NCBI RefSeq assembly: GCF_964355755.1
Contig: NC_092672.1
Location: forward strand, 620,001 to 684,000
Direction of reading: 5' to 3'
Length of the DNA stretch: 64,000 nt
Source: Antedon mediterranea
Lineage: Eukaryota; Animalia; Echinodermata
The stretch's first letter is position 1, and the number at the start of each line of letters is the position of its first letter. This document shows, one piece after another, positions 6,358-63,443 of the stretch. The notes beneath the pieces are model-generated. The model did no database searches. It was given only the letters and a program-made list of their open reading frames with translations, and was not told where the DNA came from. The translations under genes were made by a program, and so were the position numbers.

Positions 6358-8013
6358 CAGACCTCCCAACTCTCCCGAAAATCGCGGGACTCTCCCGATT
6401 TTTTTGGTTCTCTCCCGCTCTCCCGCGAAACCCAAATTTCCCCCCGATTTTTTTCATTTTTGGATAAAAATTTCCCGATTTTAAATAAGGAACATATACA
6501 ATATGGCCAAGCCAAGTAATCACATTTTTAACGTTGGATTTTGTTAAATTGACAGGGCGTTGTGAAGTTGGTTGTTTAGTTAAAAGCAAAACAAAAGCCA
6601 CACGCAAATACCATTGTTCGTAAAAAGATAAATAAAACAAAGCATACTCGAATAAAACAAAGAGTACTACTTCCCTTTTTTGTTGACTAATTAAATACGC
6701 CTAGGTGGGTCGCCTAAACAACATGGCATGGTGGTAGGTGTGGGCTGGCAGATAGAATTGCATTCAGCAAGCTTTTTGTGAATAAACGACCAATCAAATC
6801 AATCCCTTGAAAAACCACTTATTGACCACGTATAATTAAAAAAAAAGATGCATTTTTTAATTACTTATCAACTGATCGCCATTCAACTAGTTAAAATAAT
6901 ATTACAATTTCAAATAAATAATTTACGATGTCAGCTCGGCCGCCGAAGAAAAAAATTAAGTATGCAGCAAAGTTCAAACCAGAGTTCACAGAAGATTATC
7001 CATGCATTATTTCGGTCAGAGCAAAGATTATATAGCGCCGCTACGCGGCGCTATATAATCTTTGGTCAGAGGTGAACCTAGTTCAGCCAAAGATTGTATA
7101 GCGTAGCGTAGCTATACAATCTTTGGTTCAGCTAGATGGACGCTGTGCAATTTGACATTCAATATAAGCCAAAAATTCTTTGATATAAGTCATGGCGGTA
7201 GAAATGTTTCGGCAAGTTTATTTTATTTTTCATATGTTATGTGCTTTTTTAATGTATAATTAAATAAACTACAAAAGGCCAGAAAATGTTAGACGCAAGG
7301 CTGCAACCATTGAAGCTAGGCTAGTAGTGTTCACTCGACTAGCCTTTGTAGGCCTAGCCCTCAACAGTGCCAGTAGGTTACTAAACGGCGTCGTTCAGTC
7401 ACTCCAGGCCTAGGGATTGGTGAACCTTAGATAGGCTAGGCCTGTAGTTGGCCTGTCGATTCGGCTACTAGGCCTGGTGGTGGTCATACGTACGTCTAGG
7501 TACAAAACTGTATGTTATCTAGGCCTATCTATGTTTTTAAAAATATAATATTTAGCCTAAAAAAAAAATATTTAGCCTAGATCTGTAATTAGTTATTGAA
7601 ATTGATATTTTTTACAGACAAAGAAGCATGAAAAAGCTGCAAGAGTTGTGAACCAATGCCAGACTTTGTTGTTCAATATAAACAGAGATCCAATAGCAGA
7701 AAAGGTTATAAACGCGGAGGTGCTTTATACATCGTATATTGTAGAACACAATCTTCCATTCGCCATTACGCAGCACGCAAACCACCTTTTTCCAGCTATG
7801 TTCCCGGACTCAAATGCACTAAATGTGTTATGTTAATAATGTACATAAGATGAAAGATGAAAATAAAATATTGTATTGCAGCATTTTGAAAAAACAGACA
7901 ATTTATTTTTGTATATCTTTGTTGTGTAACGCGCGTCGCATAACGCGTCGTAATAATATATTTTTTACCGAAAAAATCTCCCTATTTTTTGTCAATCCAT
8001 GTTGGGAGGTCTG
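6358..8013 (+). mobile_element. Internally deleted hAT-superfamily DNA transposon with a transposase 5' remnant
   Basis: 13-bp TIR CAGACCTCCCAAC / GTTGGGAGGTCTG. Remnant peptides MSARPPKKKIKY..TLCNLTFNISHGGRN (6928-7205) and KKHEKAA..VINAEVLYTSYIVEHNLPF..HLFPAMFPDS (7618-7812) resemble hAT transposase N-termini. The catalytic region is absent. Confidence 0.85.
7022..7182. mobile_element. Three ultra-short palindromic insertions (7022-7064, 7088-7125, 7170-7182) with 7-8 bp TSDs
   Basis: GTCAGAG|CAAAGATT..AATCTTTG|GTCAGAG; GTTCAGC|CAAAGATT..AATCTTTG|GTTCAGC; ATATAAGC|CAAAAATTCTTTG|ATATAAGT. Confidence 0.85.
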
Positions 8014-17612: not shown

Positions 17613-18289
17613 AACGAAAGCTTAATTATTGTCTGATATCGGGAATTGTATTAATACCTAGACCTATTCTGCAAGTATTTAACAAAATAATGTAAAATAA
17701 ATCTTAAATTAGATTGTAAATAAAATAGAGTAGGCCTAGGCCTAGCTAGGGCCTAGGCCTACTACTACACTAGGCCTAGGCCTACTAGAGGCCTACTAGC
17801 CTAGGCCTAAAAGGCTAAGCTAGGCTATATAGGCCTAGGCCTACTACTAGGCTCTAGCCGCGCCTACTAGATAGCTAGTATATACTGTAGTAGTAGGCCC
17901 TAGCTAGAGCTCTACCTAGCTAGGCCGGCCTAGCTAGGGCCTGCCCCCTGCTGGCTGCTAGAGCCTAGCCTGCTATCCCATCTACCCAGATTTAATTCAA
18001 AAATCTATTTATTATTATACCTGCTGTCTGTAGTCTAGTAGGCCTTATCTTAGACTTAGAGTAGTAATAGCCTGCCTAGTATTAATTGTATTATTTTTGA
18101 TGTATTTTTTTTCTGTTTTTTTTAATTTTTTTTTATTTAACCATAATTAATGAGGGTGATCCATCCAGCTGTTGCTGATCATTAGGGACCCTCAGAGGTT
18201 CACAAGACAAACATATACACTAGATGCTCTACATAAACAAAGTCTTAATACAGTATTACAAGTCTTTGGGAGTGGAGTAATTTGGTCCT

Positions 18290-18422: not shown

Positions 18423-21400
18423 ATGTCGAAAAGAAAAGCTGTGGAGGGTGAAGAGCCCGAGTTGGGGTCATTTTCAGACCATTCTAAACGGAAGGTTAGG
18501 TTTAATGAAAAGGAAGAAAGCAGTAAAGATGAGAAAACAAGTCGCTTCAATACTAAACACTCACTAGATAGTGATGAAGAAGATAATACAGCTGACCCTT
18601 CAACTTATAACATTGAGGAAGGGGATCTTGTAGAAGGTGTGTATGTTTAATGTATGAGTAGTAGTTTCTTATTCACGAAAAATACATTAAATTAAACATT
18701 TAAAGACCCCTTCCCTGCAATTTTGGACGTTTTTTGGAAAATAATACATATATATCATTTTAAAAACATTAAACCATGTCATTCCTTGTCTTAAATGTAC
18801 GTTTTATGGTAAATTATGATAAAAAGTTAGAAACAATGCACTACCTAAGTAGCTCGCGGCGATCGACCTCTAGCTAGGCTTAGTTTTGTAGGCCTAGCTG
18901 GTAAACATCGGTAACGTATGAACATCGTACGCTACCTATATACCTAGCCTGACGTTGTATAGTTGCTGCATTAATTGTCTTTCTATTTTTGCCAGACTCC
19001 GTTGATACAAATTGGGGAAAACCCGGTATTTTCGCTGAAAAGTTAGGAGTCTTCCATTTGTTTTGGCCTCACGATCGATCGAAAAGTGAGCGAATTACAG
19101 GTGAAAAACAAAAATATCAATCCGCGCGCAATGCATTTTGGGATTTATAGCGGGCCGCTATAATTATTAGAATCGACTTATTTTTCACATTTTTAACCGT
19201 TTAAAGACAAAAAAAGTTATCGCAATAGGATCATATAGTATTATTTTTACATTAAATATAGTTTGTGATCTTAAATTAGATCTAAAAAACGTAGGGAATG
19301 GGGCTTTAACAACTTTAATTACTCTTGAAACTCTTTTTAGTCGCGTGGACGCGACTCTATAGTTCACTAGGTCGCGGTATCACTATGCGTTTTATCGCTT
19401 TCTGACCTTATCTCGATATCAGTTTAATCTAGCTAAGTCAATTTTTCACAGTATATTCCTTATGGCCAGGAATCAATGTGGTTATGTTTTCACGGTGCGC
19501 AATAAACAATTACGCGGTCTACGCACGATTTAACGAAATCACGTTTGTAATCATATCTTCACAACCATGAATCACAATTAAATAAAATTTGGTACTCATA
19601 AATTTCAGGGCATAAATCATCATATGGCAATACAATTACGTGCGTAACGCATGCGTACGCGCGCTTAAAATTTTCAAAATTTGTTTTCGATGAAATAAGA
19701 CTACGTTTCAGGCAATTTTAAGCGTTTACAAAATTTCCATGAGTGCGCAGATTTTTGCGCGCGCACTGCGCGTTAAATGTTGTTGCGTACTCTTTTTGCC
19801 CGATTTCTGTTTTCTTGACTTAAAAAAATATAAATGTTTTTAAACATTTCAACATTTTTAAACATGTTCAGTAATTTCGGTCAGTTGGTAGGTTAGTCGG
19901 TCGGTCGGTAAACACTAATGAGCACGCGACTGGAGCCATCTATATGGCCTTGTTTTTTCAAAACGTTAACGCACAACTAAAAAAGTTTATCACAATAAAA
20001 TAAAATTGGTTAAACATCTATAAATATACAACTATATACTGTATTACAAAACAACTTTGAAAAATACAATTACAATTACAATGTTACATTATTTTAGTTA
20101 TATTTTTCTAGTAGCATGCGGCCTGTACATTTTTAGGTACAGTAATTGATTCCATTCAATAACTCCTTAATAGGAAATACCATACTTTTTCTATAGTAAG
20201 TTGTTTCAGTGAATAAGTGTTTCTTTTTTGACAGGTTGTGAGGACAGAACATTGGAGAGTGAAGGAGGAATGAAACTAACTCCTTTCAACCTGAAAGAGG
20301 AAATGCAGGACGGATACTTTGACAAAGAAGGAAATTATTTTGAGAAGAAAGATGATGAAATCAAGGACAGCTGGATGGATGAAATAGATTGGGTGAAGGT
20401 AAAAGTGAAAGAAAGTTTGAGAAAAGATGAGAAGGACGAATCCAGTATGGTAGGGGATGAACCTGTAAATGAGCTTAATATTCTCAATAACATTTTGCCT
20501 TTTCTTAAACCGGGTGAAACGATTTCAAAAGCAGTTCGTCGGTTAGGAGGAGGAAAACAGACAAAAAACAGACCATGGGAAAAAAAGAAAAACAGTGGTA
20601 AGGCAGCAGCAGCCAATGAGAATGTAAATAAGGATGACATGTTAAAACTGACTGAGCATGTTGATGAACTTGTCGCCAATGGCAACTATGAAGTGTATCA
20701 ATACACTTATGAAAAAATTACACATTTACTTGAAGAACAGAAACGCAAAGAAGTGAAGAAAAAAGCAGATGCATTTGACATGTTCTCCGACAATGTTGAT
20801 GAAGAAAAATTGAACACAAATAATCAAGATGGTAATCATTATTTTATTTTTGTTGTTAAAGATGACCAAAATTATTTATGTATGCGAAAAACAACAAAAT
20901 AAAAATTTGAATATTTTATATTCAATTTTATATTTACATTATGTCTACTATATCAATTCTATAAATAGTTTTAAGCAACAATTGTGATGTACAGTATTTT
21001 TTAATCCTTTTATGTCTCAGACTTATCTTTTGTGTTTTTTCTATATGAATGTTTTTTATGGATGTTTTTATATGATTTTAATGAGGAGCAGAGTCTTAAA
21101 TTTTATATTAATTATGTCTATAATATATTGATATTATAACTTTTGTGTCTTTTGTGTTTTTTCTATGTTAATATTTTTTATGGATGTTTTTAATGAGGAG
21201 CTGAGTCTTACATTTTATATTAATTTTGTCTATGTCTATGATATATCATTTTTATCATATAATAAAGTAATAATATGTAAACATCTTTTATTAAATTTCT
21301 AGATTCAAACGAAAAGAAAAATCAATTGAGTGTGGATGAAGTTTACTGGGAGTACCGATGGGAAGACAAAGAGGGCGCTGCGATCCACGGACCATTCACT

Positions 21401-21523
21401 AGTACCCAAATGCAAGAATGGGTCGATAAAGACTATTTTCCCGACGGTGTTTTAGTTAGAAAGGTTAACTCTGGAGCTAATTTCTACACATCTAAGAGAA
21501 TAGACTTTGACTTGTATACATAG
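18423..21523 (+). CDS. CD2BP2: CD2 antigen cytoplasmic tail-binding protein 2 (U5-52K / Snu40 / Lin1)
   Basis: Exons 18423-18636, 20235-20831 and 21303-21523. Motifs [26 protein letters not shown] and LKPGETI..AVRRLG, plus a C-terminal GYF domain [31 protein letters not shown]. Confidence 0.96.
18704..19305. mobile_element. Kolobok-like non-autonomous DNA transposon in CD2BP2 intron
   Basis: TTAA on both flanks, AG...CT termini, imperfect TIR AGACCCCTTCCCTGC / GTAGGGAATGGGGCT; second copy at 9651. Confidence 0.75.
19334..19957 (+). mobile_element. Helentron-associated (HINE/DINE-1-like) element
   Basis: 5' TTTTTAGTCGCGTGGACGCGACT, GGTC microsatellite, 3' sub-terminal inverted repeat CACGCGACT, stem-loop GCCAT..ATGGC, and T-run flanks. 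Confidence 0.75.
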
Positions 21524-36662: not shown

Positions 36663-38826
36663 AAAAAATAAATAAATAAATAAATAAATACCTTCTGTAT
36701 TTTTATGACAATAAGCAAATAATAAACACAAAGTATTATGCTTATTAATTATTGAGTCATCGTAATATTATTTTGACTTCTGTTTCCAGATGCCAAGACA
36801 CTTGCCACCCCCTGGACCAGCTACTGGTACCAATCAGAGCTCACCTGACGAGGATGTTGCCGTTGCTATGGTTTCTGGATTAGCTTCACTTTATTCACGT
36901 ACTTCTGTTGGTTTGATATTTATAGGAGGAATTGTAAGTCGTCTCTTTCAATTTCTTACACTAATTTATCTAATGCCCTCTTTCTGTCGGAGATTTTGAA
37001 GTCAAACTTTTGATAATTGAATCAATCCCAAAAGATGATTGTAGCATAACAACCAAAACATTGAGACATTCTCAATACTTTATTTCCTTTTAGAAACACA
37101 TGGTGTACCACAAAACTGACATATTTTATTTATTTCTTTTATTTCTTTATTCTTTATACTTGGAAGTCTGTTAGTAGTAAACTACAGTTCTCCCACAGTT
37201 CCCAGTATGTGTGAGTGACAGTGGCTGTGTGTACTAGTACTTACCTTGTGTTTATTCTCTGCAAACTTTTAAAGAATATTGAATCAGAATACAAATTCTC
37301 CATATATTCACACTATCTGGATTTCTGGATTGTCCAATTGATTTAAATTATGAATAGTAAATTAAATAGATCTTTAGGAATTGCCCTTTTTAGCATTGGG
37401 TTCAAGCTGTCTGTCGCTTACTATATTATTTACTGTGTAATAGACCTTTCTAGAATGTCTTTATCTCTGTTGAGCTTAATACACTAATTAAGTATTAAGT
37501 CTCTTTCCTTGTCAGATTTGGAAATCAGTTGGCTGGCGTATCTTAGCAGTAGCTGGAGGGATGTATGGAGGCATCTATATGTATGAAAGGCTGACATGGA
37601 CAAATAAAGCCAAAGAACGTACATTTAAGAGACAGTTTGTGGATTACTCAGCAGAGAAGCTTCAGCTGGTAGTCAACTTCACTAGTGCAAACTGTAGTCA
37701 TCAAATTCAACAGTAAGGACACAATAGTAATCTCATATACATTTTTCCAAATACAACCTTTATACAAAACAGTCGGGAGACTTTATAAAGCCATGGCTAA
37801 ACCATAGAGGGCACTAAAATTTGTTAAAATGCATCCAAACATAGATGCTACTAAAGCTCTATCTACACTATCAAACTTTATGTGAAAAGAAAGTGTGATG
37901 TACCCAAATATGGTAGTGATATGTTTAAATATGGTAGTGATATGACATCATCATATCCATATATGGGCACATCACATTTTGTTCATCCGGTATCTTTGTT
38001 TTGAGCTGCCTATGTTGCCTTTAGTTAAATTATTATTATTGGGACATTGAGCTTTTTAATTACCCAGTTAAATTTCAGTTCATTTTTAATCCTTTTATTT
38101 CACAATTGTGTTGCTAGGGAGTTGTCGACAACATTTGCCAGATTGTGCCAGGAAGTAGATACCGCAAAAGAAGCATTAAATAAAGAAATTGTTGTTCTTG
38201 ATGCTGAAAAAAATAAGCTAGAAAAACTAATGAATGATTCAAAATTACTTCGGTAAGTAAAAGAGGATCTAACTGTTTTATGTGCATAGGGCCCTGGGTG
38301 GGACTACTTATGAACATACTTCCTGGGTGGGACTACTTATGAACATACTTCCTGGGTGGGACTACTTATGAACATACTTTAGTAAATGTGAACTAGTAGC
38401 CCAAGGATAATAACATTGAGGATTTAGTTAATGCACTCTTGTCGACCCTGAGAAACTCTTTCTAGAGGACTTAAGAGACTACAACTGCTAGGTACAAGGT
38501 ACTTATTGGAGAACTCAGGGAGGGACAACTTAGCCCTCTATCGATAATAATAATATAATAATATAACAATTTATATAGCCCACATATCCACTAAAAGTGC
38601 TCATGATAGATAAACATGAATTTATTCCTGCTTTTTGGTCTTTCAATTATTATTTTTATAAAAACAACTTACTGATTTAGAATTCTTCTGTTTTCAACAA
38701 ATTACTTCTTTCCATCTATCAGTTTATATTAACTTGTTATGTTTTTTTTTTTCAAGAAATCGTGCCAATTGGCTGGAAAGTGAATTGATGCGGTTCATTC
38801 GTCAATACCTTGGCAACGAAGACTAA
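28416..38826 (+). CDS. MFN: Mitofusin (MFN1/2, Marf ortholog), dynamin-like GTPase
   Basis: 17 exons: 28416-28596, 28742-28868, 29059-29221, 29486-29610, 29885-29993, 30329-30436, 30698-30851, 31988-32055, 32359-32480, 33113-33239, 33567-33671, 35629-35731, 35948-36168, 36790-36933, 37516-37712, 38118-38252 and 38757-38826. Motifs [45 protein letters not shown] and [14 protein letters not shown]. Confidence 0.97.
31286..31880. mobile_element. Kolobok-like non-autonomous element in mitofusin intron 7
   Basis: TTAA flanks, AG..CT termini, imperfect TIR AGCTCAGGTACAGG / CCCGCACCTGGCCT. Confidence 0.6.
32785..33078 (-). mobile_element. L2/CR1-clade LINE 3' fragment
   Basis: Peptide [32 protein letters not shown] followed by a GCGCTTTG..GCGCTTTATAAAT end and a (TTAT)n tail. 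Confidence 0.85.
33712..35158. repeat. 15-bp minisatellite, about 96 copies, in mitofusin intron 11
   Basis: Unit TATGTACAGTATTTA with clustered variant blocks. Confidence 0.98.
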
Positions 38827-39268
38827 CCTAACTAAGTGGTCTGGATTTGAAACAGAGTCTGCAAAGAGTCTATGCTCATGGATAGCTTTATTTGTAGGTA
38901 TCTTTGTATACTAAAAAAATGTATAAATATGGAATTTTAAATACAATTTTATTTTATGGTATTATTGACTTATTGGCTCAACTTTACACACACTTTAATA
39001 TTTAAATTTCTAATTTATAATGTGTTGATTGCTTTGAAAAATTAACTCTCTGTATGTTCTGTTATATTTAATGAATTTACATCATTATTTTGAAGAAAAA
39101 AAACCTGATTTTGTTTAAAATTATATCTGAGACAACAGTAAATAGATTTTTGTTGCAAATTAGAATTTAAATTTATATTTCATAAAATAGGTGAAGCTGA
39201 AGTAAAAATCTGAATTCTATAAGTAGTATAGTATTGATATGCATTTCAAATAAAATAATTTTGAATCT

Positions 39269-39368
39269 GTAGAACCAGGGAAGAACGACACTCTTCCTTG
39301 GTACAACCAGGGAGTTGCTTATTTTACAACTCCCTGGTACAACCATGGAGTAATCTCCATGGTACAAC
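39269..39368. mobile_element. Array of three ultra-short palindromes separated by a 7-bp direct repeat
   Basis: GTAGAAC|CAGGGAAGA..TCTTCCTTG|GTACAAC|CAGGGAGTTG..CAACTCCCTG|GTACAAC|CATGGAG..CTCCATG|GTACAAC. Confidence 0.85.
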
Positions 39369-39430
39369 TAACTATAGGTTTTACATAATAATAATATTAT
39401 GTATATACATTGTTCCTTGGATACATATCC

Positions 39431-39910
39431 TGTACCACAAACCTGACTTTACTATCATTTATATACTAGATAAGTTAATCCTCAAATATTAATACAATAT
39501 TATATGAATGTACCACAAACCTGACTTTACTATCATTTATATACTAGATAAGTTAATCCTCAAATATTAATACAATATTATATGAATGTACCACAAACCT
39601 GACTTTACTATCATTTATATACTAGATAAGTTAATCCTCAAATATTAATACAATATTATATGAATGTACCACAAACCTGACTTTACTATCATTTATATAC
39701 TAGATAAGCTAATCCTCAAATATTAATACAATATTATATGAAATTGAATGTACCACAAACCTGACTTTACTATCATTTATATACTAGATAAGCTAATCCT
39801 CAAATATTAATGCAATATTATATGAAATTGAATGTACCACAAACCTGACTTTACTATCATTTATATACTAGATAAGCTAATCCTCAAATATTAATGCAAT
39901 ATTATATGAA
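39431..39910. repeat. 78-83 bp tandem repeat, 6 copies, downstream of the mitofusin stop
   Basis: Unit starts TGTACCACAAACCTGAC at 39431, 39509 and 39587. Confidence 0.95.
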
Positions 39911-42206
39911 TTTCAAGAATAATTTAATCAATTTTTTGAAGAGCAAATGTATTTGAAGTTTATTTTTCATTACCAGCTTTATTCTAAAATGAGTGAATAT
40001 GCTAATTGCTAAGGTACTTTACTTAATTTTAAAGTTTGTATCTAATTGCAAAGGTGTTAAATAAGAAATACTTTGATTTTGATGAGTGTAGTAATTGAAT
40101 TACATTTTATTATTATTATTTTTGTTTATTATTATTTTTTAAGTGCAATATTAGCGTTGACACATTTTTAACTCAAGTCATTTCTTGTCTGTAAATTTCT
40201 GAAAGGTTTGTTTTTTTATGAGGTGAAGATAGTATTTGTGTTTGAACCTAAAACATGTCTAAAGTAACTGTATGCATTCTAAACCTGACTTTAAATCGAA
40301 AAATTACAAAGAATTGAAGTAGCTTGTTTACAATCTAGATATGAACTTACAGTTTAAAAAACAAATTATTCTAAAAGAAATTAATTTGAAATGGTATTAT
40401 AATCTACACTTGGACAATTATTTCTGTATGTTTACTAAAAATATGAAAATACCTGTACATGCCTAAAATTAAAAGCCTAATAGACAAGGCATTAACAAAG
40501 AATTTGTGTTATATATGTTGTTAGTATTCCAGTCCAGCTTTTGTCTGTAATCTTCGGTTCAAGTATTTTACGTATGAAACGCCAAGTGTGCCAAATTATT
40601 CATTAGTCAACGCTGACGATTCGTGAGAATAATGTTGCTTCATAGAAAACTGGCTTTAGACAGGATTCGAACCCAGGACCAACGCTACAGAATCATCTTA
40701 ATCATTTTTCTAAAAGAAAAAAAAAGGAATTAGCCAAAAAAAGGTGATTTTCTATACTGAAACGATGCGAGTATTATTAAAATGTAACAAAACGCGTATG
40801 TCTTCTGAAAATGCTTATTTTGTATCAATTTGGTAAAATGATATGACAGTATTTAACTGTTTAATGATCGTAGTTTGTTTGTATAGTGTTAAACGATTCC
40901 CACAACCGTAATCTCTTTATTATTTTTATTATGAAGTGTAAAACAAATGTTATTAGCTTGCTTAGTCCTTGTTCACACGGCCGTGATATCTGTGAGAAAA
41001 ACATGACAAGTTACCTTCTGCCCTTAATATGTAACCTTGGACCTCGCACGTCGTTGCCCAGCAACCAATCAGGCGCTCGCTCAACCAGAATGCCTGTATC
41101 GTTGATCAAATTAATACATTTATTTTCAAATTTCATATGCAAACGTAGACAACAATGAATAGCATTCCCAGCAGACGACCTGCCTAACAGGCGATGCACC
41201 CAGGCGGAATGAAAGGCAACAATAATGGCGTCAGGCGCTCTCACAACCATAGGCCCACAATACATTGATGAAAAGCGCGCTTGAAAAATTTAACTCGCGT
41301 TTTAGTTGGTGATAATACGGTTTACAAGACCAAGGACGAACTTTATACGTCTATATTGACGTGGACACACCTACTCATAAGTGCGCGTACGCGTAGTATA
41401 ATACGCTACAGTAATATAGGAATTACCTATCCTATATTATCTGGCCTACTCGTGTTTTCTTCAGCTATTTAAAAAAAATAAAAGCATACTTAATTTCTGA
41501 TGTAGGCCTATTATTTTTTTTAATTTAAATCACAATATGTCATATCTACTGTATGAGCGAAATAAATTGTTACTCATTGCCAGTTTTCCCAGTTTGCCTT
41601 TTATTTACTATAAAAAACATATATTTACTTTTTGAAATAAGTAGGGCTACAAATTCATAGTTAATGTTGAAACAGTAGAATTAATATTACCATAGATAAA
41701 CATTCACGATATATACGAACGTAGAAGGAGGAATCAAGAACCGCTAGAATTCCAAAACTCTGTAACTGGCATTCAAACTCGATTTTCAATTTATGTAGGC
41801 CTAAAATCGATTTAACTTCGTGAAACACTGAAATACTCGATAAATCAACACATTAATTGGCACCTATAGCAAACCTCTCACTATTTTTCTAAACAAACGT
41901 GGCCAATTTGATATAGTCTGGCTTGGGATGGCCCAGCTGCGTGTATCGCCTACTGTAGTGTCAGCTGTAATAGTACTTTATCCAAAATCCAGCAATTGAA
42001 CCAGAAAATGTTCCTTTTGTTTTCAGCACTTCCACACCCGTGCAACCTGTTGAAGCGTGTAAAAGGACTGTCTAGAAAATCAATCATAAGTTCTATCACA
42101 CGATTAGCAAACTATAATATTTTAAAACACCAATAAAACAAACATTAAAATCTGGTTGAAGCAACTACATACTTTTATCTCCTTTCGCATAATAGAAGTA
42201 TTATAA

Positions 42207-49200: not shown

Positions 49201-63443
<14,243 letters not shown>

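Follow-up and report, generated by a model that had tools for sequence, protein, structure and literature searches.

Three different hairpins stacked at one 7-bp target in the mitofusin 3' UTR of Antedon mediterranea, read as likely scars of excised P-type transposons

The window (the whole stretch of 64,000 nucleotides of Antedon mediterranea DNA analyzed here) has a GC content of 33% and contains intron-rich genes that encode Piwi, GYF, mitofusin and TRAPPC11-type proteins. By Pfam, exons of the Piwi gene (PAZ, Piwi_N) lie at 330-2306 on the minus strand, exons of the GYF-domain gene at 21281-21520 on the plus strand, and exons of the TRAPPC11-type gene (Gryzun-like, Foie-gras) at 49360-59484 on the minus strand. 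Pfam family PF04799 (Fzo_mitofusin) matches two exons preceding the last mitofusin exon (37492-37713 and 38029-38253), and the stop codon of this gene is at 38824-38826.

We identified an array at 39269-39368, 443 nt downstream of the mitofusin stop codon, in which four copies of a 7-nt repeat separate three different hairpins of 25, 29 and 18 nt (H1, H2 and H3, Table 1). An earlier sequence-only reading had described four repeats and three CA...TG palindromes about 450 bp past the stop, and its coordinates and lengths are correct. It had also suggested that the hairpins might sit in the 3' UTR. A 2901-nt contig from X5, a second sample of the same species from another study, spans 38756-39430 with one other letter and contains all three hairpins; at its loose end it carries the last bases of the preceding exon (38222-38251). 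Because this contig is spliced, the array does lie in the mitofusin 3' UTR. X5 is taken as RNA only from its spliced contig, and none of the runs that contain the locus is recorded as RNA.

Table 1. Features of the hairpin array, the transcribed region around it and the second hairpin cluster, in window coordinates
Feature	Position	Strand	Remarks
hairpin E1	7015..7071 (hairpin 7022-7064, 43 nt)	.	exact 7-nt repeats; 17-nt arm + 9-nt filler + 17-nt arm
hairpin E2	7081..7132 (hairpin 7088-7125, 38 nt)	.	E1 family; 16-nt arm + 7-nt filler + 15-nt arm
hairpin remnant E3	7162..7190 (hairpin 7170-7182, 13 nt)	.	E1-like ends; 8-nt repeats, one mismatch; weakest of six
last mitofusin exon and 3' UTR with array	38757..39430	+	extent as covered by the spliced X5 contig
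target copy 1	39269..39275	.	GTAGAAC; GTACAAC in organism B, C at 39272 in every B contig
hairpin H1, 25 nt	39276..39300	.	arm imperfect in window
target copy 2, GTACAAC	39301..39307	.	sequence
hairpin H2, 29 nt	39308..39336	.	perfect 10-nt arms, 9-nt centre
target copy 3, GTACAAC	39337..39343	.	sequence
hairpin H3, 18 nt	39344..39361	.	perfect 7-nt arms
target copy 4, GTACAAC	39362..39368	.	sequence

Each of the three array hairpins starts with CA and ends with TG, and the three have six or seven of their first ten nucleotides in common. The H1 arm of the window contains a G-T at the third pair (8 of 9 pairs). H2 occurs only once in the window, and searches of the window with the arms returned no further convincing element end. 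A repeat of the form GTnnnAC is self-symmetric, so that the array arms may also be read as 2 nt longer with a 3-nt spacer. However, the 7-nt reading is fixed by two hairpins elsewhere in the window (7022 and 7088) that carry non-symmetric 7-nt repeats.

The array is real and far above chance. It folds with a z-score of -9.0 as DNA and -9.5 as RNA, and none of 200 shuffled sequences folded as well. A strict scan for arms of at least 7 nt between exact 7-nt repeats returned four hairpins in the window (7022, 7088, 39308 and 39344) and zero in each of 12 shuffles; H1 does not pass this filter on account of its third pair. With looser settings the window contains two hairpin-repeat-hairpin junctions, compared with one in a single shuffle out of 40 and two in none.

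The hairpins at 7022 and 7088 (E1 and E2) belong, together with the remnant E3, to one family located within 170 nt, inside a short frame on the plus strand at 6928-7260. The sequence-only reading had noted that the array shares its architecture with the elements at 7022-7182. E1 and E2 lie between exact 7-nt repeats, and E3 between 8-nt repeats with one mismatch. The first 16 nt of E1 and E2 are alike at 15 positions, beyond which the two diverge. Their centres are mutually unrelated and copied from the arms, and the E2 filler repeats the last 5 nt of the E2 arm. Arms that are shared up to a point, followed by filler copied from those arms, is the pattern of templated end joining. Removal of E1 and E2, each with one repeat, leaves a frame that is open over 79 codons from 6928, whereas the sequence in the window stops after 35, which fits insertion of E1 and E2 into a coding remnant. 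Two short pieces of this frame gave no Pfam match; we presume a resemblance to the N-terminal zinc finger of hAT-type transposases. Separately, short AGGCCT/CTAG-rich inverted repeats are clustered at 7340-7500 and 17799-17919, with a 42-nt palindrome between 6-nt repeats at 17799, and are probably the ends of another repeat family.

The locus is present in nine runs, five from the species of the window (organism A) and four from a relative (organism B). We compared contigs of six of these, X3 and X5 for organism A and the four B runs, with X1, X2 and X4 set aside. X3, possibly the source of the window, gives no independent view of the locus. One B haplotype in X6 and X8 carries a joint 39298>39335 that skips 36 nt, equal to H2 and one repeat. 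With a shorter reference, 8/8 B contigs exit the window sequence at 39315 and continue into H3, followed by the last repeat and the flank; these contigs represent two haplotypes in each of four runs, and the haplotypes agree at 0.9. Both B haplotypes thus consist of H1 followed by H3, with neither H2 nor one of the repeats, and the allele carries three perfect GTACAAC copies. The four B runs come from one study, have the same two haplotypes, and may represent one individual. In organism B a G at 39285 provides a tenth pair for the H1 arm. Both this arm and the first repeat have decayed in the species of the window.

The perfect arms of H2 and its many close copies point to a gain of H2 in organism A, in a comparison without an outgroup; in the same comparison H2 could instead have been lost in B between repeats. 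H1 is likely the oldest scar and H2 the newest, and H1 and H3 would have preceded H2. The array had been proposed as a record of insertion history, and checking haplotypes and related species for alleles with zero, one or two hairpins had been recommended. History does appear to be kept, but not in linear order, since organism B lacks the middle unit. The two-hairpin allele was found in B, while zero- or one-hairpin alleles were seen in none of the organism A and B contigs at the locus. None of these contigs carries a long element at the array site either.

The comparison also bears on the idea that selection maintains the array as a structured part of the mitofusin 3' UTR. The array is part of the spliced contig of a second sample and would form three stable stems as RNA, but H2 is absent in B, and H1 and the first repeat are the decayed parts in the window's own species. 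We give this idea almost no credence; the array is probably tolerated in the 3' UTR.

Several other differences were observed around the array. At 38791, in the last exon, both organism A runs compared read A and the window and organism B read C, a synonymous difference. Very deep contigs from X3, X5, X6 and X8 at 38571-38603, in the last mitofusin intron, mark the end of a high-copy repeat. In the organism B 3' UTR, a 45-nt tandem duplication at 38845-38889 is found in X8 and absent from X6. A 78-nt tandem repeat with six copies (39431-39911) begins 63 nt past the array, and the end of a B contig match at 39418 indicates that it may be specific to organism A. One B haplotype diverges a few bases past the last repeat (39373-39430), where about 6 of 30 letters distinguish the two B haplotypes; this is possibly a further insertion or deletion beside the array.

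Copies of H2 and H3 occur at other loci. Eight of 38 X3 contigs are listed among the matches; two are the locus itself and six carry H2 with other flanks, and a seventh such contig appears in the gap table. H2 is 29 nt and ungapped in three of the six (two to four other letters), and one X5 contig among the matches listed contains an H2 copy with a single other letter over 33. All five length changes of H2 among those listed fall in the 9-nt centre (1, 1, 1 and 5 nt left out, 2 put in). The relatives of H2 among the matches listed are 24, 28, 29 and 31 nt long. Those of H3 (X3 and X5, again among the matches listed) have 2, 6 or 7 extra letters and lengths of 18, 20, 24 and 25 nt; since the aligner prefers copies of similar length and flanks, neither a target consensus nor a length limit is measured fairly by these matches. 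Two of the longer-centred H3 relatives sit between exact or near-exact GTACAAC repeats. Close copies of both H2 and H3 are also found at other loci in organism B, which has no H2 at the array. For H1, dispersed copies and extra depth were seen neither in X3, X5, X6 and X8 nor among the B contigs, so that, in these contigs, the copies with other flanks suggested as a check for each hairpin were seen for H2 and H3 only.

In several dispersed contigs the repeat is preceded by TG or followed by CA; these are possible stacks elsewhere. One X5 contig (227 nt, depth 4) matches 39321-39353, comprising the end of H2, a repeat and the start of H3, with three other letters. It is perhaps a second stack elsewhere, and such cases are uncounted because the longest matches are listed first.

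Two further proposals concern the origin of the array. The first, that the array is the inside of a larger repeat, is rejected, as both array flanks are at single-copy depth in X3. Neither of the observations that would have spoken against the sequence-only reading was made: H2 and H3 recur with other flanks, and the 100 nt lie outside any larger repeat. The second is local origin without a transposon, by tandem duplication of a unit of hairpin and repeat with template switching to rebuild the arms. The 6-7 nt common to the starts of H1, H2 and H3 and the many tandem repeats of the region would agree with such a process. However, it does not account for close copies of H2 and H3 at other loci, including those in organism B with no H2 here, or for the like build with different 7-nt repeats at 7022 and 7088, and the array arms do not repeat the flanks in inverted form. 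We consider local origin highly improbable.

Serial insertion at one target is supported by the two-hairpin B allele and by the occurrence of H2 and H3 elsewhere with other flanks. We favor, as the probable explanation, that the stack arose at one target in separate events, and that each hairpin is the end-joined scar of an excised P/Galileo-type transposon. The proposal that each insertion re-duplicated the target is consistent with a B allele that is shorter by exactly 36 nt. What was inserted, however, was probably not the hairpin: each step of the array would comprise the insertion and excision of what was probably a full P-type transposon.

The binding sites of P transposase are internal, and the enzyme cleaves one strand within the element, 17 nt from each end (PMC7776569). 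After excision, the donor retains both target copies and 17-nt tails. The donor junctions of Drosophila P in Table 1 of PMC2895639 have the form target, arm (up to 17 nt), filler, arm (up to 17 nt), target, measure 5-44 nt, and often contain filler copied from nearby sequence. According to PMC4168063, Galileo, a member of the P superfamily, makes a 7-bp duplication (rarely 8) with the consensus GTANTAC and has a strong target preference. In the scenario we propose, an element inserted at GTACAAC and duplicated 7 bp; the duplication itself is seen in the two-hairpin allele, and its direction would be that of a gain. A P-type transposase would then have excised the element via a long staggered cut, like the 17-nt one of Drosophila P, leaving the element tips on both donor ends. 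End joining would have fused the trimmed tips with short templated filler, giving the order of target, arm, filler, arm and target that is observed. Finally, the TG and CA tips of the scar beside each target may restore a preferred extended target, as predicted for P (PMC2577343), so that related families could hit the site again.

The window hairpins are compatible with this scenario in several respects. CA...TG termini are found in six of six, and the flanking repeats are 7 nt in five of six. GTACAAC matches five of the six fixed letters of the Galileo consensus; the E1 and E2 targets share only the opening GT with the GT...AC type, and the E3 target does not fit. The compositions of E1 (17+9+17) and E2 (16+7+15) fit a 17-nt staggered cut, and E1-E3 would represent a second cluster of P-type hits, at neighbouring targets. 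Neither a parent element nor a transposase was found in the window by arm searches and by Pfam in a set of 119 frames, of which four were mitofusin pieces and 115 were stop-to-stop frames of at least 62 aa that lie outside both the mitofusin gene and six tandem arrays. Metagenome contigs gave 0 matches to the target joined to the H2 arm. Two metagenome matches to the two H2 arms (L001 and L002) were rejected as chance, neither being located between direct repeats.

If the hairpins were themselves mobile, they would be minimal non-autonomous elements of 18-29 nt that make a 7-bp duplication and prefer sites between existing hairpins. Dispersed copies with other flanks and duplications of their own, as seen for H2 and H3 and with several of 29 nt among the matches listed, would be expected of such elements, as would the listed copy with a single letter changed over 33 nt, and no long parent was found in the window or the metagenome contigs. 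That search covered only the window and those contigs. Subtracting 34 nt, for two 17-nt cuts, from the lengths of H1, H2 and H3 gives -9, -5 and -16. Provided that the enzyme acts as P transposase does, no duplex would be left after both cuts, there is no room for internal transposase sites, and the three hairpins would make poor mobile units. In addition, among the matches listed the centres vary in length while the arms stay constant, and the centres of E1 and E2 are unrelated and arm-copied. By our own count from Table 1 of PMC2895639, 14 of 66 Drosophila isolates have an identical P junction; recurring centres therefore do not require mobility. We regard mobile hairpins as unlikely. An extended form, in which a P-type transposase integrates such hairpins preferentially between two earlier ones and thereby builds self-extending arrays genome-wide that record the succession of families, appears to us distinctly unlikely.

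Scars of the same appearance could be produced in other ways. The hairpins may be remnants of internal deletion of P-type elements, caused by deletion at subterminal microhomologies or by gap repair that was interrupted, or they may be scars left by a different superfamily that has CA...TG ends and makes a 7-bp duplication, in either case not end-joined 17-nt overhangs. Identical anatomy would be expected from internal deletion, and in wild-type flies most P excision products are attributed in PMC2895639 to incomplete synthesis followed by end joining. The putative membership in the P superfamily is itself assigned only from the ends and the target, which leaves room for another superfamily. 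However, remnants of internal deletion should spread up to kilobases, whereas all six window hairpins measure 13-43 nt, and E1 and E2, the one family with two comparable copies, stop sharing sequence at 16 nt. Taken together, we judge these alternatives very unlikely.

Under the preferred reading of repeated insertion and excision at one site, it must be asked why this site was hit three times. There are 140 GTnnnAC sites in the 52,658 unmasked bases of the window. That three of six events fall on a single one of them indicates a hotspot. Dimers of P elements are produced by two insertions at a site near the consensus and have one shared target copy (10.1101/158386). The terminal bases of the P element have further been shown to restore the extended target, with the prediction that any insertion improves it (PMC2577343). 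Of the targets in the B allele, just the inner one has tips on either side, TG to its left and CAT to its right, and this is where H2 sits in organism A. The position of H2 fits the predicted improvement, in one case, and scars may feed back on targeting.

The closest parallels to the array are found among P elements. The P{wa} junctions of D. melanogaster described in PMC2895639 likewise have both targets around a short CA...TG palindrome composed of unevenly trimmed tips and filler. These junctions have an 8-bp target and come from one laboratory insertion with a known parent in Rad51 mutants, while the array has a 7-bp target, is natural and inherited, stacks three families, and has no parent found. 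Tandem P dimers also combine several insertions per site with one target copy between them (10.1101/158386), but they consist of whole elements of one family; the array contains what we read as scars only, with three tip sequences and a two-unit stage in a relative. Galileo, with long inverted repeats and a transposase segment (PMC4168063), is likened to the array here by its 7-bp duplication and its target consensus.

The array resembles CRISPR in its repeat-unit-repeat geometry, which arises from duplication at each integration. It differs in its 7-nt repeat, in having palindromes as the spacers, in a variable unit in the middle of the array, and in its location in an animal 3' UTR. CRISPR loci have repeats of 20-50 nt and Cas genes nearby. 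No Cas family was identified by Pfam among the 119 frames, in which the matches were to the Piwi, GYF, mitofusin and TRAPPC11-type proteins. Because it is the middle unit that B lacks, growth was also not polar as it is in CRISPR, and the likeness is one of geometry only, as the sequence-only reading had held. Two other sources of terminal inverted sequence were rejected. Retroviral-type ends run TG...CA, the reverse of the CA...TG orientation in the array, and footprints from hAT/Transib-type hairpin opening copy the flank, which the array arms do not.

We found no description of natural stacked scars, or of mobile palindromes this small, in the open-access literature searched by literal word match, a scope that leaves subscription journals and Repbase outside; the supplements of 10.1101/158386 could list tandems of mixed families. 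Each ingredient is known from Drosophila, and what appears to be new is a natural stack of three families with an intermediate allele. Inserts of 13-43 nt are too short for repeat annotation, and they add hairpins to UTRs. If the hairpins were self-mobile, they would constitute a new size class of mobile element, far below the MITE. If instead they are scars, as we favor, the array is a natural and inherited case that joins P-type excision scars, repeated insertion, and a target predicted to be kept hot by element tips. Such stacks would then allow target restoration to be tested from genomes only, by comparing how often scars and naive targets are hit again and whether the inner target is preferred. 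They could also be used to order the activity of vanished transposon families, and could reveal the depth at which P-type enzymes cut outside insects.
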